Source: Solirubrobacteraceae bacterium
Lineage (GTDB): Bacteria; Actinomycetota; Thermoleophilia; Solirubrobacterales; Solirubrobacteraceae
Reading direction: 5' to 3'
DNA length: 64,000 nt
Assembly: GCA_035940955.1 (NCBI GenBank)
Contig: DASZEJ010000129.1
Location: 16,768 to 80,767, forward strand
Shown here: positions 21,366-33,415 of the stretch, in pieces
Position numbering within the stretch: position 1 is the stretch's first letter
Layout: each line of letters opens with the position of its first letter
Program-made: the position numbers and the translations under genes
The notes under the pieces: generated by a model
What the model saw: only the letters and a program-made list of their open reading frames with translations
What the model was told of the DNA's origin: nothing
Databases searched by the model: none

Positions 21366-23231
21366 CTATTGCGCAGCGCTCCGCCGCAGGGCGGCGCCGC
21401 GCAGGACGTCGTGCTCCGACACCTCGACCTCGTCCAGGCCGAACGCGCGCAGGACCTGGATGAGGATGGCGACCCCGGCGACGATCGTGGGGGCGCGGTC
21501 GGGGTGCAGGCCGGCGACGTTCCGGCGGTCGTCGTTCGGCATCTGGGCGAGCCGGGCCAGGAGTTCCTCCAGGCGGCCGAGGGGGATGCGGTGGCCGTGG
21601 ACCTGCTGCGGGTCGTGGTGGGCGCTTCGCTCCCCCGCCTCCCGCCCCGGATTGCACAGGTCGATCGCGCCCGCCGACGTCGCGGTGCCCGCGACGGCGA
21701 TCGCGGTGTGGACGGAGTCGCGGACGCTGTCCGGCACCTCGTTCTCGACGGTCTGCCGGACCTCGCTCGCGAGCGCGCCCAGCTCGTCCGGGTGCGGCGG
21801 GTCGGAGTGCAGGTGGCGCTCGGTCTGGCGCACGACCCCGACCTGCATCGAGACGTGGAAGGAGACGTCGTCCGCGTGCCCGACCACGACCTCGGTCGAG
21901 CCGCCGCCGATGTCCACGACCGCAAGCTCCGTGTCGCCCGGCCGCGTGGCGCGCTCGCTCGTGGCGCCCAGGAAGGTCAGGGCGGCCTCCTCGTCGCCGT
22001 CGATCGTGTGGGCGTCGAGGCCGTAGCGGTCGCGGACGGCCTGGGTGAACTCCGCGCCGTTCGCGGCGTCGCGGACGGCGCTGGTCAGCACCGCGGTCGT
22101 CGTGTCGGCGCGGTGCGCGTCGATCTGGGCGCGGTAGTCGTCGAGGACGGCGAAGACGCGGTCCATCGCCTCCCCGGCGAGCGCGCCGGTCGAGTCCACC
22201 CCCTGCCCGAGCCTCGTTACGCGAGACTCGCGGGCCAGCTCGTTCGCGATCCGGCCGTCGTGGACGTCGGCGATGAGCAGGCGGGTGGAGTTCGTTCCGA
22301 TGTCGACGACGGCGACGCGCATGGCCGGGCGCGGCGGAGGCGACCCAGCGGGGTGCGGCAGCGGTCGCCCCTCCAGGCCGGCCAGGAGGTTGTCCACGGC
22401 GAGGTCGGCCATGCGCTCGCGGGTGGTGTGGGTGGCCGAGCCGATGTGGGGGACGACGAGGGCGGTCGGGGTCTCGTAGAGGGGGTGGTCGGGCGGGAGC
22501 GGCTCGGGGTCCGTGACGTCGAGGGCGGCGCCGCCGATGGCGTTCGCCTGCAGCGCCCGCGTCAGCGCGTCCGTGTCGACCAGCCCCCCGCGCGCGGTGT
22601 TCACCAGGATCGCGGTCGGCTTCATGGCGGCGAGGGCGGCGGCGTCGACGAGGTGCTTCGTCTCGCTCGTGAGCGGGGCATGGAGCGAGACCACGTCCGC
22701 TTCCTTCAGGGCCTCGTGGAGAGGCGTCTCCCGCGTGACCGCGACGACGCGCATCCCGAACGCCTCCGCGCGCCGCGCGACCGCCCGCCCGATCCGCCCG
22801 AACCCGACGACGGCGAGCGTGGCGCCGCGAAGCTCCATCCCCAGCCACCCGGCGGGCTCCCACGTATGCCAGTTCCCGGCGCGGGCGTCCTGCGCCGCTT
22901 GGGGAAGGTTGCGGGCCGCGGCGAGGATCAGCGCGAAGGCGAGGTCGGCCGTCGCGTCGGTGAGCACCCCGGGCGTCGTCCCGACGACGATGCCCCGCTC
23001 GCGCGCCGCGTCGAGGTCGACGTTGTCCGCCCCGACGGCGTAGTTCGAGATCACCCTGAGCTTCGGCGCTCGTTCGAGGAGCCCGCCGTCGACCCGATCA
23101 GTCAGCAGGCACAGCAGCCCCTCCGCCCCGGCGATGTGCTCGTCGACGCCGCCGGTCACCACGTCGTGCACGGCCGCCAGCCGGTCCAGCGCGGGGAAGG
23201 GCAGAGGTCGAGTGACGAGGACGCGAGCCAT
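21366..23231 (-). CDS. fusion ORF: D-isomer-specific 2-hydroxyacid dehydrogenase (glyoxylate/hydroxypyruvate reductase-like) joined to a Ppx/GppA phosphatase domain
   Basis: Residues 1-~295 carry 'VVGFGRIGRAVARRA' and 'LVNTARGGLVD...PHIGSAT'. A Pro-rich linker 'PHPAGSPPPRPA' follows. From the Met at nt 22322 the sequence reads 'MRVAVVDIGTNSTRLLIAD...VVDIGGGSTE' (Ppx/GppA). No stop codon separates the two parts. Confidence 0.75.
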   Translation of the reverse strand: MARVLVTRPLPFPALDRLAAVHDVVTGGVDEHIAGAEGLLCLLTDRVDGGLLERAPKLRVISNYAVGADNVDLDAARERGIVVGTTPGVLTDATADLAFALILAAARNLPQAAQDARAGNWHTWEPAGWLGMELRGATLAVVGFGRIGRAVARRAEAFGMRVVAVTRETPLHEALKEADVVSLHAPLTSETKHLVDAAALAAMKPTAILVNTARGGLVDTDALTRALQANAIGGAALDVTDPEPLPPDHPLYETPTALVVPHIGSATHTTRERMADLAVDNLLAGLEGRPLPHPAGSPPPRPAMRVAVVDIGTNSTRLLIADVHDGRIANELARESRVTRLGQGVDSTGALAGEAMDRVFAVLDDYRAQIDAHRADTTTAVLTSAVRDAANGAEFTQAVRDRYGLDAHTIDGDEEAALTFLGATSERATRPGDTELAVVDIGGGSTEVVVGHADDVSFHVSMQVGVVRQTERHLHSDPPHPDELGALASEVRQTVENEVPDSVRDSVHTAIAVAGTATSAGAIDLCNPGREAGERSAHHDPQQVHGHRIPLGRLEELLARLAQMPNDDRRNVAGLHPDRAPTIVAGVAILIQVLRAFGLDEVEVSEHDVLRGAALRRSAAQ

Positions 23232-23704: not shown

Positions 23705-23778
<74 letters not shown>

Positions 23779-23786
23779 CTCAACAG

Positions 23787-23874: not shown

Positions 23875-26800
23875 TCACGACGAGCCCAGGAACGCCTGCC
23901 GCGCGAGGTTCTCGATCTCATGCGAGTCGATTCCGCCCTCCTCCGTCGACCAGACGAGCGTCCCTGAGGCACCGCCGCCCTCCGTCCACGGGAGAATGTC
24001 GTGGTCGCGGTACCACCCGAGCTTCGCCTCCCAATCGGCGCGGTATCCGGCGAGGTCCAGCATGCCCAGATGCTCCCAGTAAGCGGGCGGTCCGCTGGAC
24101 CGGCGAATCGTGAAGTCCGGCTCCCGCACCGTGCCATCAGGCATCCGCAGGAGCTCCTCGTACGTGTACTCGACGCCGAGGTCGCGGAGCGTGTTCGCCA
24201 CGATCACCTCGGACTTCGAGCGCATAAGTTCCTCGTTTCGGGAGCGGTGGACATGAGAACCGTCGAGGATCCGCCCCTCCGGTGTCATGAACGGGTCGGG
24301 CGGCCGGAACAGGCAGGTCAGGCGCCGGGCGGTCTCGGATCGCGCGGGATCCGAGAGCTCGAGAAGCTCCATCGGCTCGCCCTGCACCAGCAGCACCGCG
24401 CGACCGCGGTGGCGCGTGGATGCGGTGTAAAGCAACTCGGGCGACAGCAACGCGGACGGCTTCGGCACGACGACAAACGTCGTCTCGAACTGCGATCCCT
24501 GAGCCTTGTGGACGGTGATCGCGTATGCGACGTCCAGGAGGTCTGCGCGATCGGACTCGCGGTTCAGCTCGTTTTCCCAGAACGTGAACCGCAAACCCGG
24601 CTGCGTGGAGAACTCGAGCCACAGTCCGATGGCAGCTCCGTTCTTCTTCGGCCAGCCGACCGCGATGCCGATCTCGCCGTTCGCGACGTCGCTGTCGACG
24701 TCTTCGCCGGTGGCGATGCGCCGCGCCCCGCGGGGGTGGTTCGCGACGCACATCACTTTGTCGTGAAAGAGGACCTCGCCTGGGCCCATTGGGTCCGGCA
24801 GCGCGACGGTCTGCCGGGCGCGTGCGGCATCACCGGACCGCCACGTCCGCCGAATCATCCGGTTGAGCCCGACGACGCCGCCCGGTCGCGATCGAACCGG
24901 GCTCAGGATCTGCCACAGCTCGGCGCCGCGGCCTGCGGTGCCGAACTCGAAGGAGACGCCGCGAGGGCCGTCCGTGGCCCCGAGCGAACGCTTCAACGCG
25001 TCGGCGTCGCCGTTCCCGAGCTGGAGGCTGCTGTCGTTGCGAAGGATGTCCGCGATCTTTTCGTGGAGATCATCCTCGTCGCTCCACGAGATCACACTGA
25101 CGGTGCCGTCACCGCCACCGGAGACCACCCGGGCCCAGGCCTGATCGGCGCCCGCGGGGGTGGCGTCCGCGGCGAAGCACGCCGCGACCGCGGCGTCGTC
25201 ACGGGCGCCGGCGGCGCCGTCGCGTGCCCGCTGACGACGGCCGATCGTGAGCTCGGCCACCCCGCCACCCGACTCGGGCGCCGCGGTCGCCCGAAGGTGC
25301 GCGACCAGATCGGCGAAAGGCCGGCCCGCGCCGATCGGCGGCAACTGCCGGTGGTCGCCGCACAAGATCAGCCGCTCGGGCGCGCGGAGCGACTCAATCA
25401 GCGCCGCGAGCATCTCCTCCGTGAGCATGGACGCTTCGTCGACGATCACCGTGCGAACGCCGCCGAACCGCATGCCGTCCCTGTTCAGGAAGTAGCCACG
25501 CTCCCAGGTCCACCGTTCAGCCTTCTTCAGGAACTGCGCCAGCGTCCGCGCCTGTGCCCCCGCCTTGTCCCCTAGTTGAACGCGCGCCTTGCCCGTCGGC
25601 GCTAGCAGGAGGACGTTGCCAGCGATGGTCGGATCGGAGCAGAGCGCGCGCAACATTGTGGTCTTGCCCGTGCCGGCCGGCCCGACCAGTGCGGCGATGC
25701 GCGACCGCGCGAGCGTCGCAAGCGCTGCGGCCTTCTCCTTCCGGGCTCGCACCTCGAGGTCCAGCTCTGGATCGCCAGACGGTGGCAACTCCTCGTCGAT
25801 GGCGCCGTCGATGAGCGCGTCCCAGGAGGCGCTCGCCGCCAGAGGACCATCGTCGATACGCCCTCGAACCTCTCCCGCTATGACGTCCGTGACCGCCGCC
25901 AGACGATCCAGTTGCCACGCACGGCCGCGACCTTCCGCTACGGCTCGCTCGAGGAGCACAGGCTCAAACTCCTCGGCGGCCAGCTCGAACTGGTCGGTCG
26001 TCGGGTCGCAGCGCGGGTCGAGGTCTACCTTCGCGAGGCGCTTGCGGAGGCCTGCCTCATCGAGCAGCGTATGGCCCTCGTCAGTGGCCTTCTCGAGGAC
26101 GGCTACGGACGCGGCACGGATGCGGCGGTCATCCACCGACTCCTCGACCGGCTCGGGAAGCGGGTCGTAGTCGAGCGCGGCTCGGGCTGCGGCGTCCCGC
26201 GGGAAGAGGCCGCGATCGATCGTGCGGAACCCGACCGCGTCCCTGGCGGCACGATCGAGCTCGTAGGCCAGGTACGGGTTCTCGAGGACCTCCCGCGGCG
26301 CGACCGGCCGCGTGTCGCGGTCGAAGAGCCGACGTGCCTGCGGCGACGAGAGCGCGAAGCGCGAGAGCAAGCGAACGAGGTCGTACTCGTCCGCGCTGCC
26401 ACGAAGGCGTTCCCATCGCTTGCGGCTCATGCGGCCGAGCAGGCCAGCGGCCGGGCCACGGCCGCGCGTCGCACCATCGACGGCCTGTTCGAGCGCCGGC
26501 CACGGATTCGCCGAAGGGTCTGTCATCGACTTGAGCACGCGGTAGGCGAGCACCGGCCCGCGCTCCAAGCCTGCAGCCGCCAAGACAGGGCCCATGCCGG
26601 GATAGGCGCCGCGTGCCTCCCATGCCTCCGCGACGCGGTCGCCGAGCCAGTCAGCGACCTGGTCCCACGGCCCGTCAACGACACCGGGGAGGAGGTCGAC
26701 AGCGCGAGCGAGTTCGGTGAGTGCGGCGATCGCAGCGTCGTGCTCGACCCGCTCCGTGACGTAGGAGAACTCGTCGAAGTGGTCGGCCGGCGCGACGGCC

Positions 26801-27621
26801 ACGAACGGGTCCAGGTCCGCGCCCTGCAGAGCCGGGCTCCGGAGTAGCTCGTGATACGGCAGGAGGAACCCGTCCTCGAACGTCGGCCGGATGGAGTGGC
26901 AAACGCCGCGCTCCCATATGACAGCGCGCAGCGGGCCCTTGCCGCGGTACGACCACTCGAGTGGTGGGAGAACCTCCTTGACGCGGCCGACGCCGAGGAG
27001 GATGCGGCCCCCTGGCGGCCGTTCCTCCAGGAGCGGGACGTCCTTCGCATAGATGAAGACGAGCGAGCGCTCAGGCACAACGCCCGAGAAGAACGAGTCG
27101 AGGAGCGCCAGCTGGTTCCGATGATCCTGGACCCAGTCCCTTGCCTTCGGGGTCCTGATGATCGCCGAGGCCGCCTCCTCGAGCTCCTCGTCGTAGTTGA
27201 TGCCCCAGAGGCGGAGCCGGTCGGAGATTTCACCGCGCATGACCCACCTAAATGGCGTCGCCTCGAGGCTGTACGCCGGCATGCGGTGGACCGTCTTGTC
27301 GAAGTGCGCGTGGGACTCGGTCCATCCACCCGAGTACGGGTGCTCGCGGACGATCGAGAACGCGTTCGGACGCATGAAGCCCGCCCGCTCGAAGACGCAC
27401 GGCGGTACCCGCTCGCGGGGCAGCTCGGTCCACGCCGTGCCACGATCGTCCTCCTCTGTGTCCGCGTCCTTGTTCTCGTAGACGTTCTTGAGGACGGTGC
27501 AGGAGTGGTTCGCCGCGGGCTCAGCGCACACGCGACCCGTCCAGTCAGTGTCGTGCCAGGCGACGCGGGCCGAGAGGTGAGCCGGTGGGAGCTCGACGGC
27601 GTCCGCGGAGAGCTGACTCAC
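23875..27621 (-). CDS. 1248-aa multidomain protein: unknown N-terminal domain, RecD-like SF1B helicase, and a C-terminal PD-(D/E)xK-like nuclease domain
   Basis: GTG start at 27621 and TGA stop at 23875. Helicase motifs: Walker A 'GPAGTGKT' (nt 25660-25683), 'VIVDEASM', 'CGDHRQLPPIG', an SH3-like insert 'NGEIGIAVG', 'ITVHKAQGSQF' and 'LYTASTRHRG'. The C-terminus reads 'SKSEVIVANTL...EPDFTI...YWEHLG'. Confidence 0.85.
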   Translation of the reverse strand: MSQLSADAVELPPAHLSARVAWHDTDWTGRVCAEPAANHSCTVLKNVYENKDADTEEDDRGTAWTELPRERVPPCVFERAGFMRPNAFSIVREHPYSGGWTESHAHFDKTVHRMPAYSLEATPFRWVMRGEISDRLRLWGINYDEELEEAASAIIRTPKARDWVQDHRNQLALLDSFFSGVVPERSLVFIYAKDVPLLEERPPGGRILLGVGRVKEVLPPLEWSYRGKGPLRAVIWERGVCHSIRPTFEDGFLLPYHELLRSPALQGADLDPFVAVAPADHFDEFSYVTERVEHDAAIAALTELARAVDLLPGVVDGPWDQVADWLGDRVAEAWEARGAYPGMGPVLAAAGLERGPVLAYRVLKSMTDPSANPWPALEQAVDGATRGRGPAAGLLGRMSRKRWERLRGSADEYDLVRLLSRFALSSPQARRLFDRDTRPVAPREVLENPYLAYELDRAARDAVGFRTIDRGLFPRDAAARAALDYDPLPEPVEESVDDRRIRAASVAVLEKATDEGHTLLDEAGLRKRLAKVDLDPRCDPTTDQFELAAEEFEPVLLERAVAEGRGRAWQLDRLAAVTDVIAGEVRGRIDDGPLAASASWDALIDGAIDEELPPSGDPELDLEVRARKEKAAALATLARSRIAALVGPAGTGKTTMLRALCSDPTIAGNVLLLAPTGKARVQLGDKAGAQARTLAQFLKKAERWTWERGYFLNRDGMRFGGVRTVIVDEASMLTEEMLAALIESLRAPERLILCGDHRQLPPIGAGRPFADLVAHLRATAAPESGGGVAELTIGRRQRARDGAAGARDDAAVAACFAADATPAGADQAWARVVSGGGDGTVSVISWSDEDDLHEKIADILRNDSSLQLGNGDADALKRSLGATDGPRGVSFEFGTAGRGAELWQILSPVRSRPGGVVGLNRMIRRTWRSGDAARARQTVALPDPMGPGEVLFHDKVMCVANHPRGARRIATGEDVDSDVANGEIGIAVGWPKKNGAAIGLWLEFSTQPGLRFTFWENELNRESDRADLLDVAYAITVHKAQGSQFETTFVVVPKPSALLSPELLYTASTRHRGRAVLLVQGEPMELLELSDPARSETARRLTCLFRPPDPFMTPEGRILDGSHVHRSRNEELMRSKSEVIVANTLRDLGVEYTYEELLRMPDGTVREPDFTIRRSSGPPAYWEHLGMLDLAGYRADWEAKLGWYRDHDILPWTEGGGASGTLVWSTEEGGIDSHEIENLARQAFLGSS

Positions 27622-28690: not shown

Positions 28691-28913
28691 TGCGCATTAG
28701 CACCATTGCCCGGTCGATGGAGATCCCAGGACAGATCGATGGACGAGCTCGACGCATGAACCGCTGGTTAGATCGGCGAGGCTCGGGGCTAGCGGCTGAA
28801 CCGCTCTGACTGGGCCCGGGCGGTCGGTCATTCGCCCGCGCTTGGTGTAGAGGCGGGCCGGGGCGAGAAGTACGCTCCCTCACCCGGTATTGCGAGCACC
28901 GACAGGAGCGACA

Positions 28914-30824
28914 GTGGCCGTACGTCTGGAGTGGGAGGACAAACCCGAGCACGTTGAGCGCGTGACGCTCCCGTTCCAAACCGTCGAGACGGTCAACGAG
29001 TCACGCGCGACACGCGAACGGGATCGGGGGACGCTCCAGTTCGGCGGCGATCGCCCCACCGAGCGGAACATGCTCGTTTGGGGCGACAACAAGCTGGTCA
29101 TGAGCAGCTTGCTCAAGGAGTACGCCGGCTCCATCCGGCTGATCTACATCGACCCGCCGTTCGACACAGGCACCGACTTCTCGTACCGCGTGAAGGTGGG
29201 CGACGCCGACTTCACCAAGACGCCGTCGATTCTCGAGGAGAGCGCGTACAGGGATACATGGGGCCGAGGGCGCTCTTCCTATCTCCACATGCTTTGGGAG
29301 CGTCTGGTCTTGATCCACGATCTCCTGTCCGACGGTGGCTACCTGTTCCTTCACCTAGGATCGAATGTGAGCCACTACGGCAAGGTCCTCTGCGACGAGA
29401 TCTTCGGTGCGGACGCCTACGTGAACGAGATCATCTGGAAGCGACAGACCGCCCACAGCGATATCGGGCAGGGCGCTCGGCATCTCGGTCGTCTACATGA
29501 CTCGATCCTCTTGTACCGGAAGGGCGACGAGGCCCCCTGGAACATGTCCTTCACCCCCTATAACGAGAGCTACGAGTCCTCGTTCTACAGACACGTCGAA
29601 GAGGGGACCGGACGCAGATACGGACTCGGCGACATTACCGGGCCCGGCGGAGAAACAAAGGGGAATCCGCGGTACGAGTTCCTCGGCGTCACGCGCTATT
29701 GGCGCTTCAGCCAGCGCCGCATGCATGAGCTGTACGAGGAGGGCCGGATTGTTCAGACCAGTCCGGGCGCTGTCCCGCGTCAGAAGCGGTATCTGGACGA
29801 ACTCCCCGGCATTCCTCTCCAGGACATCTGGACCGATGTGCCGCCCGTCCAAGCACAGTCTCGCGAGCGGCTCGGGTACGACACGCAGAAGCCAGAGGCG
29901 CTGCTTGAGCGGATCATTAGTCTGGCGAGCGATCCAGATGATCTCGTGGCGGACTTCTTCGTCGGGTCGGGGACGACCGCGGCCGTGGCCGAGAAGCTCG
30001 ACCGCCGCTGGATCGCGGTGGATCTCGGGCGCTTCGCCATCCACACGACGCGCAAGCGTCTCCTGAACATTCCGGACTGCCGGCCGTTCGACATCAAGAA
30101 CCTCGGCGCCTACGAACGCCAGCGCTGGCAGCAGGCCTCCGGGAACGGTGCCTTGCGCGCCTACCTCGACACGATCCTCGCCTTCTACCGCGCGGATCCT
30201 GTCGAGGGCTTCACACACTTGCACGGGCGCAAAGCCGGCCGCATGGTGCACGTCGGCGCGACCGACGCACCCGTGACGATCGACGAGACCGAGGACGTGA
30301 TGGACGAGATGGCCGACAACGGCATCGAGTCGTGCGACTTGCTCGGGTGGGAGTGGGAGATGGGTCTCCATGACACCATCACCGAGCGTGCGCGCCGGCG
30401 TGGACTGGATCTTCGGCCTCGGCAGATCCCGCGTGAGGTCATGGAGCGCCAGGTGACGGAGGCGGACGCGGTGCGCTTCTTCGAGCTCGCTCACGTCGAT
30501 CTCGACGTGCGTCGTCAGGGCAACGAAGCGTGCGTGGTGCTCAAGGACTTCGCCATCCCGAGCGAGAACCTCATCCCGCCGAAGGTGCGCGAGCGCATCA
30601 CGGCGTGGTCCGACCTCATCGACTACTGGGCCGTCGACTTCGACTACACGGACGACGTTTTCCACAACCAGTGGCAGGCGTATCGCACGCGCGAGGAGCC
30701 GAAGCTCGCCACGCAGAGCGACTGGCACGAGTACGCCGAGCCGGGACAGCACGCGATCGTCGTGAAGATCATCGACATCTTCGGCAACGACACGACGAAG
30801 CTCGCTGAGGTCCGCATAAGGTGA
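28914..30824 (+). CDS. mod: Type III R-M system DNA methyltransferase (Mod; N6-adenine/N4-cytosine beta-class)
   Basis: Motif IV 'IYIDPPFDTG' (DPPF at nt 29151) precedes motif I 'DFFVGSGTTAAVA' (about nt 29955). 'NEIIWKR' is present. AGGAG at 28904-28908 sits 5 nt before the GTG at 28914. The track's alternative start is 28890. Confidence 0.85.
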   Translation: MAVRLEWEDKPEHVERVTLPFQTVETVNESRATRERDRGTLQFGGDRPTERNMLVWGDNKLVMSSLLKEYAGSIRLIYIDPPFDTGTDFSYRVKVGDADFTKTPSILEESAYRDTWGRGRSSYLHMLWERLVLIHDLLSDGGYLFLHLGSNVSHYGKVLCDEIFGADAYVNEIIWKRQTAHSDIGQGARHLGRLHDSILLYRKGDEAPWNMSFTPYNESYESSFYRHVEEGTGRRYGLGDITGPGGETKGNPRYEFLGVTRYWRFSQRRMHELYEEGRIVQTSPGAVPRQKRYLDELPGIPLQDIWTDVPPVQAQSRERLGYDTQKPEALLERIISLASDPDDLVADFFVGSGTTAAVAEKLDRRWIAVDLGRFAIHTTRKRLLNIPDCRPFDIKNLGAYERQRWQQASGNGALRAYLDTILAFYRADPVEGFTHLHGRKAGRMVHVGATDAPVTIDETEDVMDEMADNGIESCDLLGWEWEMGLHDTITERARRRGLDLRPRQIPREVMERQVTEADAVRFFELAHVDLDVRRQGNEACVVLKDFAIPSENLIPPKVRERITAWSDLIDYWAVDFDYTDDVFHNQWQAYRTREEPKLATQSDWHEYAEPGQHAIVVKIIDIFGNDTTKLAEVRIR

Positions 30825-33415
30825 CCGCCAGCGACGTCTCGACGGTTGTTCCGAACGATCCGTACGCGGTCCCGGAGCGACGCAAGCCCAGCGAGAACAC
30901 GTACGCCGTCAACGGGGTTCGCGCGCGCGTCGATGCTTGGCGCACGCAGGCTTACCCGGGCGCGAGCGAGACGACCAAGCGCCTGCTCGGCTTCTGGTTT
31001 ACCGACGAGCACCGCACGGACGACGGCCGGCCGTTCCGCTTCTACTTCTGCCAGCGCGAGGCCGTCGAGGCGTTCATCTACCTAACAGAGATCGAGCCCG
31101 TCCGAAAGCTCGCCGACCTTCTCGAGTACGCGGAACACGGCATGCTCATCGAGCCGGGCGATCCGAAGCGGCAGCGGCTCGCGATGAAGATGGCGACCGG
31201 CTCCGGAAAGACGATGGCGATGAGCCTCGCGATCGTGTGGTCCTACTTCCACGCGCTCCGCGAGACGGACTCGCCGATGGCGACGTCATTCCTGGTTATC
31301 GCGCCGAACGTGATCGTCTTTGAGCGGTTGAAGACGGACTTCGGCGACGCCACGACGTTCCGCCGCGACCCGCTCGTCCCGCGGGAGTGGAGCGAGGACT
31401 TCGAGCTGACCGTGCTCCTGCAAGATGACCCGGCTCCGGTGACGACGCGCGGCGTGCTCTACCTCACGAACGTGCAGCGGCTGTACGAGGCGACCTCCCG
31501 AGGCAAGGCGAAGGCGCCGCCCAACCCCGTCGAGGCGATGCTCGGGCCGCGCGTGAACCGCGACATCGAGGCCTCGGCGTCTGAGGAGCTGCTCAGGCGG
31601 ATTGCGACGCGCGGTCGGGTGATGGTCGTCAACGACGAGGCGCACCACGTGCACGACCAGAAGCTCAAGTGGAACCAGTCGATCGAGCGGCTCCACGAGG
31701 AGCTGCGCCAGATGGGCGGCGACGATTCCGGCGCGGGAGTCGTCTCGCAGCTCGACTTCTCCGCGACGCCGAAGTACGAGAAGGGCGGGATCTTCAAGCA
31801 CGTGGTGGTCGACTATCCGCTTGCGCAGGCGGTCGCCGACGGCATCGTCAAGACGCCGGTGATCGGGGAGGTGAGCGGGGCGAAAGTCGAGCTGGGCGAC
31901 TCGGCGTTCCAGCGCAACCGTCAGTGGCTCGACGTCGCAGTGGGGCGCTGGCGGGCCTTCCACGAGCAGCTCAGCCCGTCCGGCAAGCGGCCGGTGCTGT
32001 TCGTCATGTGCGAGGACACGCTGGCGGCGGACGAGGCTGGTGACTACCTACGCCAGCTCCCTGACTTCTCTGGCGATCGGCTGCTCGTCATCCACACCAA
32101 TCGCTCGGGTGAGATCACCAAGGACGATCTCGACAAGGCCCGCCGAGCTGCTCGCGAGGTCGACGAGCCGGACAGCTCGATCCGCTGCATCGTCAGCGTG
32201 CTCATGCTCCGGGAAGGCTGGGACGTGCGCAACGTCTGCGTCATCGTCACGATGCGCGCGCTCACCGCGGCGAACAAGATCCTCCCCGAACAGGCGCTGG
32301 GCCGCGGTCTACGACGGATGACGCCGCCGGGCTCCGGCTTCGACGAGCGCGTGGTCGTTATTGAGCACGAGGCGTTCCGCAACCTCTGGACCGCGGAACT
32401 CGACGGAGGGCTCATTGTCGACAAGCAGGACGTCGACAAGATCCAGCCTGGCGCCGTCACGATCTTCCCGGACGAGGGGAAGCGCGGCTACGACATCGTC
32501 ATCCCGCAGCTCACGCGCGCGCTCGCGCGAGCAGACAGTCCACTGGCGCAGCTCCAGCCCCATGACGTGCCTGACCCGAAGACGCGGCTCGACGTCCCCG
32601 ACGTCGCGCCGGACGAGTACGTCAAATACCGCGGCGTGCACCTCATCGACAAGGGGGTTATCGAGGAGATGGAGTTCCTCATCCCATACGCCGAGGACCC
32701 CTCGGGCGTCATCACGTACTACACGCACAGCGTCGCGAAGGCGGGCGGCGTCGACCGGCTCGCTGGGACGTTCGCAACGCTCGCCCCGATGGTCCGCGAC
32801 TACCTGCGCCACCGCATCTTTGAGCGCCCAGTCGAGCTGGAGGACAAGGTCGTCCTCCGACGCCTCGCTGAAGCCGACGCCCAAGCACTCGTCGTGGGGG
32901 CCTTCCGCGACGCGATCCGCGCCCTGTCGATCACAGAGCGGGAGCCCACGATCGAGGAGAACGCGCTCCGAGTCTTGGACACCCCGCCGTTCCCATGGTC
33001 GCGCCAGACCGTCGAAGGCAGGAAGACCGTCTTCAACCTCACGCCGGTCGACAGTTCCCTCGAGGCGCGCTTCGCGGAGTTCCTCGACCGCGCCGCAGAC
33101 GTGACGGCATGGGCGAAGCTCACCATGAACAGCCGCTTCGCCGTCGAGTACATCTCGAAGGCGGGCGCGCTGCGCTACTACTACCCCGACTTCGTCCTGC
33201 GACTCGAAGATGACACCTGCCTGATCGTCGAGACGAAGGGGCAGGAGGATCTCGACGTTGCGCTGAAGGATCGGCGAGCTCGGCGATGGTGCCAGGACGC
33301 GACCCGGCTCGCAGGCCGCGAATGGGCTTACGAGAAGGTCCCGCAGAAGCTCTTCGACGGGTTCCACGGCGACACGATCGACGAACTGCGGCGACTCCTC
33401 GACGCCTCGGGGTAG
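30821..33415 (+). CDS. res: Type III restriction endonuclease Res subunit (SF2 helicase plus PD-(D/E)xK nuclease)
   Basis: GTGA overlap with mod. Walker A 'MATGSGKTMAM', DEAH box 'VNDEAHHV', 'MLREGWDVRNV', and a C-terminal nuclease motif 'YYPDFVLRL...LIVETKG'. Confidence 0.85.
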   Translation: MTASDVSTVVPNDPYAVPERRKPSENTYAVNGVRARVDAWRTQAYPGASETTKRLLGFWFTDEHRTDDGRPFRFYFCQREAVEAFIYLTEIEPVRKLADLLEYAEHGMLIEPGDPKRQRLAMKMATGSGKTMAMSLAIVWSYFHALRETDSPMATSFLVIAPNVIVFERLKTDFGDATTFRRDPLVPREWSEDFELTVLLQDDPAPVTTRGVLYLTNVQRLYEATSRGKAKAPPNPVEAMLGPRVNRDIEASASEELLRRIATRGRVMVVNDEAHHVHDQKLKWNQSIERLHEELRQMGGDDSGAGVVSQLDFSATPKYEKGGIFKHVVVDYPLAQAVADGIVKTPVIGEVSGAKVELGDSAFQRNRQWLDVAVGRWRAFHEQLSPSGKRPVLFVMCEDTLAADEAGDYLRQLPDFSGDRLLVIHTNRSGEITKDDLDKARRAAREVDEPDSSIRCIVSVLMLREGWDVRNVCVIVTMRALTAANKILPEQALGRGLRRMTPPGSGFDERVVVIEHEAFRNLWTAELDGGLIVDKQDVDKIQPGAVTIFPDEGKRGYDIVIPQLTRALARADSPLAQLQPHDVPDPKTRLDVPDVAPDEYVKYRGVHLIDKGVIEEMEFLIPYAEDPSGVITYYTHSVAKAGGVDRLAGTFATLAPMVRDYLRHRIFERPVELEDKVVLRRLAEADAQALVVGAFRDAIRALSITEREPTIEENALRVLDTPPFPWSRQTVEGRKTVFNLTPVDSSLEARFAEFLDRAADVTAWAKLTMNSRFAVEYISKAGALRYYYPDFVLRLEDDTCLIVETKGQEDLDVALKDRRARRWCQDATRLAGREWAYEKVPQKLFDGFHGDTIDELRRLLDASG

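Follow-up and report, generated by a model that had tools for sequence, protein, structure and literature searches.

A conserved N-terminal domain with a probable PUA-like core in PDC-S68, a family of candidate phage defence helicase-nucleases

The DNA analysed here (the window) is a stretch of 64 000 nucleotides from a Solirubrobacteraceae bacterium (GenBank assembly GCA_035940955.1, contig DASZEJ010000129.1), which carries on its minus strand a gene for a 1248-residue protein of the PDC-S68 family, listed in PADLOC as a single-gene defence candidate (Payne et al., preprint 10.1101/2024.01.29.577857). From the N-terminus, the protein is laid out as a predicted PUA-like domain, a region resembling the N-terminal part of RecD2, a superfamily 1B (SF1B) helicase core and a C-terminal PD-(D/E)xK-like domain. 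Our subject is the first of these. A first-pass annotation, made from the sequence without database searches, had described it as a domain of about 260 residues, rich in conserved-looking Trp, Cys and His residues and reminiscent of PUA/EVE/SRA-like reader modules, which would make it the obvious candidate for a sensor. The features of the gene, all on the minus strand and in window coordinates, are as follows.

23875..27621, minus strand: the whole helicase-nuclease gene, 1248 aa; stop-free translation, PDC-S68 member
26602..27588, minus strand: N-terminal domain proper, residues approx. 12−340, not in Pfam; barrel core predicted to be PUA-like (YTH/EVE-type), plus additions specific to the family (AlphaFold2 models, VIA-align)
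27490..27579, minus strand: signature motif, residues 15−44, H-L-S-x-R-V-(P/A)-W-H-D-x-(G/D)-W-x-G-x-V-C-x-x-P-x-x-N-x-x-C-x-x-L (68-sequence alignment)
27361..27564, minus strand: β1−β2 insertion, residues 20−87, with short helices and all of the invariant Cys residues (C32, C41, C75) (AlphaFold2 models and alignment)
26971..27072, minus strand: conserved β-hairpin 'SLVFIYAKD...GRILLGVGRVKEV', residues 184−217 (AlphaFold2 strands 187−192 and 206−217)
26842..26925, minus strand: residues 233−260, 'W-E-R-x-V-x-H-S-I-R-P ... G-F-L-L-P-Y' (AlphaFold2 strands 238−242 and 251−253)
26611..26742, minus strand: C-terminal helical hairpin of the N-terminal domain, residues 294−337 (AlphaFold2 helices 294−309 and 319−337)
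25747..26601, minus strand: middle region, residues 341−625, resembling the RecD2 N-terminal region (weak HHH_RecD2 match)
24382..25746, minus strand: SF1B (RecD/Dda/Pif1-like) helicase core, residues 626−1080 (Pfam AAA_30 7e-31, AAA_19 and UvrD_C_2)
23878..24339, minus strand: C-terminal PD-(D/E)xK-like domain, residues approx. 1095−1248, with motifs S-K-S-E1138, P-D1169-F and W-E1183-H-x-G (57-homologue alignment)

The database gene call at this locus is 1218 residues long and begins at V31, dropping the RVxWHDxxW part of the opening motif. There is a GTG codon at 27621, directly 3′ of an in-frame TAG, to which the N-termini of homologues align. For these two reasons we prefer it as the start, as the first-pass annotation had done, and the shorter call is almost certainly a start-site miscall. 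No obvious Shine-Dalgarno sequence accompanies this GTG (27529−27621, minus strand). The 1248-residue translation contains every string quoted in the first-pass annotation: the opening motif 'ARVAWHDTDWTGRVCAEPAANHSC' at residues 18−41 (nt 27570−27499), 'ERSLVFIYAKD' at 184−194, 'GRILLGVGRVKEV' at 205−217 and 'AVIWERGVCHSIRP...GFLLPYHELL' at 233−260.

Scanning with profile hidden Markov models assigned the protein to PDC-S68 over its full length, with the PADLOC model PDLC05065 spanning residues 14−1244 of 1248 at 1285.9 bits. Two further models of the family, PDLC05066 (E=4.6e-142) and PDLC05064 (E=6.1e-107), both begin at residues 9−14 and cover the N-terminal domain. Since the PDC-S68 models span it end to end, this domain is an integral part of the family, and nothing sets the protein of the window apart from other members. 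The PDC set comprises 145 untested candidates for phage defence, which were picked out by guilt-by-embedding, the surrounding loci being those of BREX, DISARM and Type I restriction-modification (R-M) (10.1101/2024.01.29.577857). PDC-S68 is thus already catalogued as a candidate, while its N-terminal domain is undescribed and absent from Pfam: the helicase is the only domain described for the family, public records annotate its proteins solely as ‘AAA family ATPase’, and a literature search for ‘PDC-S68’ returned zero papers.

Homologues of the N-terminal domain were collected with residues 1−340 as the query. A word-indexed search yielded 236 full-length relatives with 56−73% identity over the domain, and HMMER, run exhaustively against 1.84 billion cluster representatives, yielded 1065 clusters (50% identity) at E<=1e-3, with 217 at E<=1e-30. 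Judging by source names, the domain is spread across Actinomycetota, Bacillota, Pseudomonadota, Bacteroidota, Chloroflexota, Gemmatimonadota and Myxococcota, along with one archaeon. Conservation was counted in an alignment of 68 divergent representatives sharing 31−61% identity. Sixteen positions are invariant (R19, W22, D24, C32, N38, C41, C75, P123, S186, Y191, W236, H242, P255, W325, G338 and P341) and another 29 are conserved in at least 90% of sequences. Trp, Cys and His residues, which had looked conserved in the single sequence, are among the invariant positions (W22, C32, C41, C75, W236, H242 and W325).

Conservation has two maxima, one at residues 12−45, which hold the opening motif, and the other at residues 183−262, which hold the hairpin 'FIYAKD...GRILLGVGRV' and the segment 'WERxVxHSIRP...GFLLPY'. 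The first-pass annotation had allowed that its motif might vary among homologues; the motif is the best-conserved part of the domain, far beyond chance. It spans the end of strand β1 and the start of the Cys-bearing insertion, with H15, V20, P21, W27, G29, P35 and L44 conserved in at least 90% of sequences. The β-hairpin (residues 184−217) has S186 and Y191 invariant and K193, P196 and R206 at 90% or more, while in residues 233−260 the invariant W236, H242 and P255 are joined by R245, G251 and Y256, again each conserved in at least 90%.

The structure of the domain was modelled twice with AlphaFold2 (AF2), once for residues 1−345 with 28 homologues (model 1; predicted local distance difference test (pLDDT) 85.5, predicted template modelling score (pTM) 0.87) and once for a homologue with 38% identity (model 2; pLDDT 96.4, pTM 0.93). 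The N-terminal domain proposed in the first-pass annotation is recovered, with its boundary moved from residue approx. 260 to approx. 340 (nt 26602). Strand β1 (residues 14−19) ends in R19-V-x-W22-H-D24 and leads into the insertion, after which strands are predicted at 88−92, 110−114 and 118−121 and helices at 129−179. Beyond the conserved hairpin and the 233−260 segment, short strands at 275−277 and 289−292 precede the helix 294−309, the first of the helical hairpin that draws trivial coiled-coil matches in fold searches. The combination of three invariant Cys residues with an invariant His in a cytosolic protein leads us to propose a structural metal site: the sequence suggests that the tri-Cys insertion may bind Zn, with a His as the fourth ligand (H242, which is invariant, or H15 or H94, which are conserved in at least 90% of sequences).

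When model 1 was compared with 48,161 representative chains using VIA-align, the first six ranks were all taken by PUA-like domains, and the remainder of the top 22 included YTHDC2, residues 13−127 of DrmA, Rpa0253, the McrB N-domain of S. marinus, CPSF4-YTH, ASCH, YTHDC1 and MRB1-YTH. The best structural match of the models is Mmi1 YTH. For model 2, trivial matches to the C-terminal helical hairpin crowded out the rest of the wide VIA-align search; when the Foldseek top 1000 for this model was rescored with VIA-align, every non-hairpin row was PUA-like, although a rescoring limited to Foldseek's own top 1000 is not an independent search. The best Foldseek rows, which are non-significant (E 0.02−0.6), include LonA-N, MJECL36, VcaM4I, PH1033, THYN1 and the T. 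gammatolerans McrB N-domain with 5-methylcytosine (m5C) DNA, and Foldseek against BFVD gave no match at E<=0.001, the top row being an EVE protein at E=0.037. In both models the barrel is matched first by PUA-like domains of the YTH/EVE/ASCH type, among them EVE domains found in modification-dependent nucleases (VcaM4I), the N-domains of McrB and the EVE-like domain of DrmA, whose N-terminus has been described as EVE-like (10.1101/2025.09.15.676423). As the matches agree on one superfamily for two models and two aligners, with approx. 90% of each target covered, they speak for a real PUA-like core, and on the strength of these models the fold is probable. Of the PUA/EVE/SRA-like folds suggested by the first-pass annotation, PUA/EVE-type matches lead the searches of both models, whereas SRA chains appear in none of the fold-search lists, an absence that does not exclude an SRA-like fold. 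The PUA/EVE/SRA-like assignment is the only one that the data support. By sequence, the domain is a family separate from EVE, YTH and ASCH, and searches of Pfam, NCBIfam and PDB sequences with the domain, both as a single sequence and as a profile, gave no matches.

Pfam matches to the whole protein are confined to the helicase core (AAA_30 at 630−778 and UvrD_C_2 at 1032−1077), for which the PDB sequence matches are RecD2, RecD, Dda and Pif1, and whose Walker A motif, GPAGTGKT, includes K648. Alignment to RecD2 of D. radiodurans (3e1s) begins at residue 497 (residues 497−772 in a PDB sequence search), and the RecD2 model TIGR01448 matches residues 497−774 with 167 bits against a cut-off of 500, while TIGR01447 scores 128 against 310. 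When the middle region was scanned alone, PF14490 (HHH_RecD2) matched with E=0.001. On these profiles the protein is SF1B-like but not an orthologue of RecD or RecD2. We also considered whether residues 1−340 might be a known helicase accessory domain (RecD2 N-terminal/HHH), the outcome that the first-pass annotation had named as fatal to its proposal, and rejected it, as RecD2 likeness begins only at residue approx. 497.

The C-terminal domain gave no Pfam or PDB match, with weak hints from PADLOC HEAT_CxxC_PDDEXK (E=0.021) and TT1808 (E=0.28). In 57 full-length homologues, E1138, D1169, F1170, E1183 and H1184 do not vary and conservation of K1200 reaches 98%, and we regard the domain as a candidate PD-(D/E)xK-like nuclease of the Vsr/DUF559-like ‘E-H-x-G’ kind. 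Taken with the helicase core, the invariant acids among these residues (E1138, D1169 and E1183) point to a protein that may be an active motor-nuclease.

The first-pass annotation had proposed cataloguing the other effector domains to which the N-terminal domain is fused. There were none: in the best 150 of the 1065 clusters the domain was seen only ahead of the same RecD-like helicase, leaving room for rarer architectures in the weak tail. Proteins of 189−700 aa with the domain had no other Pfam domain, and the two short forms inspected are split or frameshifted genes directly upstream of the helicase half (P. aeruginosa, 669 + 626 aa; a metagenome, 402 + 736 aa). At the other extreme, the four longest variants inspected (1406−1562 aa) retain the helicase and vary only in their C-terminal parts, the 1406-aa protein having an extra Schlafen domain (SLFN_AlbA_2) at residues 1255−1390 and the other three (1493−1562 aa) having C-terminal extensions without assignment, such that the effector end varies while the N-terminal domain is constant. 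An odd case is found on a contig of GCA_030153525.1 (1111−6343), where an 873-aa protein has the domain at residues 538−863, behind 537 unassigned residues, and is followed by small open reading frames (ORFs) with helicase pieces (AAA_30, UvrD_C_2). Either the copy has decayed or the gene contains introns and is perhaps eukaryotic.

The gene lies in a stretch of lower GC content (0.65−0.69 over 24−34 kb, compared to 0.72−0.79 elsewhere in the window), and two further features of this island bear on its interpretation.

23705..23779, plus strand: tRNA-Met (CAT) bordering the lower-GC island (ARAGORN)
28890..33415, plus strand: Type III R-M pair, mod at 28890−30824 and res at 30821−33415 (Pfam N6_N4_Mtase 7e-37; ResIII 3e-14 and RE_endonuc)

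The mod and res genes overlap, appear intact and are situated approx. 1.3 kb from the helicase-nuclease gene on the opposite strand. The island is bounded by the tRNA-Met gene and a citrate synthase gene (35436−36665), and a 249-aa ORF (34388−35137, plus strand) matches part of the TrwC relaxase model (positions 42−174 of 286), a fragment probably left by the element with which the island arrived. Divergent from the helicase-nuclease gene is a 324-aa ORF (27716−28690, plus strand) with no Pfam match, which is probably not a partner, because no equivalent neighbour is present at five homologous loci. Across six loci no conserved partner gene was found. At 21366−23594 (minus strand), a 742-aa ORF combines a D-2-hydroxyacid dehydrogenase (151−415) with a Ppx/GppA phosphatase (441−728) according to Pfam, which is an uncommon fusion unless, as is possible, two neighbouring genes have been read as one.

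Standing alone in or near defence loci, the gene behaves as expected of a PDC-S68 system. The Serinicoccus homologue follows hsdM-hsdS-hsdR, a Type I system whose HsdM belongs to the N6_Mtase family, and precedes a HEPN gene; that of a B. cereus megaplasmid sits between an integrase and a DISARM operon; and that of P. aeruginosa is in an island with other helicase/ATPase genes and transposases. One metagenome homologue adjoins a PIN gene, and another is directly downstream of recC-recB-recD on the same strand, with STAND NTPases and an integrase fragment after it. The source genome (a 3.7-Mb assembly, 88% complete) has one copy of the domain, which was otherwise rare: it was present in 3 of 301 sampled genomes of the phylum, one of the three being an unpublished genome, and in none of six genomes of the same family. 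A scattered distribution of this kind, carried on islands, is consistent with a mobile defence gene.

We put the chances at roughly even that residues approx. 12−340 are the PUA-like sensor of a Type IV-like SF1B helicase-nuclease, a role in which we infer that the ligand is a modified base. The barrel would bind nucleic acid, most likely flipping a non-host (modified) base into a pocket that could be formed by the invariant residues R19, W22, D24, S186, Y191, W236 and H242. Recognition of the base would recruit or license the 5′−3′ helicase motor, after which the C-terminal nuclease would cut the invading DNA. As to the base itself, N6-methyladenine (m6A) is the typical methyl mark of N6_N4_Mtase and N6_Mtase enzymes. 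We judge that a reader of the host's own mark would be self-destructive, and so, if a modification is read, a phage-type hypermodified base is more likely. On this scheme the protein would be a modification-dependent, Type IV-like enzyme complementing the methylating R-M, BREX or DISARM loci that it adjoins, and a parallel is offered by BrxU, a Type IV enzyme embedded in BREX (mentioned in 10.1101/2024.01.29.577857). A bolder formulation is tentative, and we would sooner bet against it in full: that the domain opens a new branch of the PUA-like superfamily as a ‘jumbo EVE/YTH’ domain stapled by a metal (Cys3-His), and that it reads phage hypermodification rather than host m6A and so licenses the SF1B helicase-nuclease, making PDC-S68 a new single-chain, ATP-dependent class of Type IV enzyme that backs up methylating R-M, BREX and DISARM systems.

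Several observations weigh against a PUA-like sensor. The structure prediction and fold search envisaged in the first-pass annotation did place PUA-like barrels in the lead, but Foldseek against the PDB returned no match at E<=0.001 for either AF2 model. The structural scores are moderate (Z <8), in a range where, as the tool itself warns, a common arrangement alone can suffice, and only approx. 125−135 of approx. 330 residues map onto the PUA-like core. Pfam, including EVE (PF01878), YTH (PF04146) and ASCH (PF04266), gave no match for 28 members even at E<=10. Comparison of the family profile with a 30-sequence EVE alignment using hhalign was likewise negative (Prob 0.14, E=0.43), that alignment having been built from the EVE protein of a related genome and representing one narrow subfamily only. 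The same was true of four sub-blocks, none of which was significant; the hairpin of block 180−262 did align on the EVE hairpin 'GDGFVYYSP...AFTAIGKI' as expected, but with P=0.42, and it is not used here as evidence. An enzyme active site would be served equally well by many of the residues that are polar and invariant (R, D, N, S, H, K, E). Finally, the Nocardia homologue lies among ordinary metabolic genes, and PDC-S68 is itself an untested defence candidate.

Among the alternatives, the one that survives best, though we think it rather less likely than the sensor, is that the domain is a general PUA-like anchor for nucleic acid (single-stranded DNA, a DNA end, a fork or RNA), which loads or auto-inhibits the RecD-like motor without reading any modification. 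The cue for non-self would then lie elsewhere, for instance in free DNA ends, as in RecBCD-type surveillance, and it is in keeping with this that one homologue directly follows recC-recB-recD. The PUA-like folds take in simple binders of RNA and DNA as well as the Lon N-domain, the latter being among the Foldseek rows, and the YTH domain of Mmi1 reportedly binds an unmethylated RNA motif rather than m6A. The EVE-like domain of DrmA, moreover, sits in a system that is reported to sense unmethylated DNA and DNA ends. A general anchor accounts less well for the compact set of aromatic and hydrogen-bonding residues that is invariant across phyla, which looks more like a specific pocket, and several of the structural matches (VcaM4I and the McrB N-domains) come from enzymes in which a reader is fused to a nuclease that depends on modification.

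We consider it unlikely, and somewhat more so than the anchor, that the resemblance to PUA domains is topological only and that the domain is a distinct Cys/His metal-dependent module, either enzymatic or a sensor of a phage protein. The modest Z-scores and the lack of any sequence or profile link to PUA-like families can be read in this way, as can the invariance of C32, C41, C75, H242 and many charged residues and the fact that over half of the domain is outside the matched core; some PUA-like relatives (ASCH) are, indeed, enzymes. Yet the models of two sequences only 38% identical have barrels that match one and the same superfamily over approx. 90% of the target, which is not expected by chance, and besides trivial helical hairpins no alternative fold family is present in any of the lists. 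A housekeeping or repair helicase-nuclease, with the N-terminal domain recognizing lesions, is very improbable: the RecD2-like core is present and some homologues lie in non-defence neighbourhoods or beside recBCD, but the family is too patchy (rare in the phylum sample and absent from the same-family genomes searched), the window copy shares its low-GC, tRNA-adjoining island with an R-M system and what remains of a relaxase, and its homologues occur on plasmids and repeatedly next to R-M, DISARM, HEPN and STAND genes.

Returning to the sensor-bearing helicase-nuclease, comparison with known systems shows how its parts would be combined. The N-terminal domain is approx. 2.3 times larger than EVE/YTH readers such as THYN1, PH1033, YTHDC1/2, YTHDF and Mmi1, to which it adds the 65-residue tri-Cys insertion after β1, helices 129−180 and the terminal helical hairpin. 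Modification-dependent restriction enzymes with fused EVE/PUA domains (the VcaM4I/TspA15I family and McrB of T. gammatolerans and S. marinus) differ in both motor and nuclease: the motor of PDC-S68 is SF1B and RecD-like rather than the McrB GTPase, and its nuclease candidate, carried on the one chain, is PD-(D/E)xK-like instead of HNH or McrC. In Type IV enzymes of the SauUSI type, a modified-cytosine reader, an ATP-dependent helicase and a nuclease share one polypeptide, as is proposed for PDC-S68. The order and families of the parts are nevertheless different, SauUSI having a PLD nuclease, a superfamily 2 (SF2) helicase and a C-terminal DUF3427 reader where PDC-S68 has an N-terminal putative reader, an SF1B helicase and a C-terminal PD-(D/E)xK-like domain. 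DrmA of class 1 DISARM is an SF2 helicase of the YprA family that works with DrmB, DrmC and a methylase, whereas PDC-S68 is SF1B and stands alone. With RecD2 (3e1s, TIGR01448), PDC-S68 has in common the helicase core and some of the N-terminal region before it (497−772), but RecD2 has neither the PUA-like N-terminal domain nor the C-terminal nuclease-like domain.

Even if the N-terminal domain is not a reader, it defines a distinct and widespread family (>1000 clusters at 50% identity) without a Pfam entry. The PUA-like assignment gives PDC-S68 a testable mechanism, in which the sensing of a modification or nucleic acid is coupled to helicase-driven cleavage, and names the residues to mutate. 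Should the domain prove to read a modified base, it would represent a new family of readers, possibly of use as a reagent for detecting DNA modifications, and would bring a new type of motor, SF1B, to Type IV restriction.

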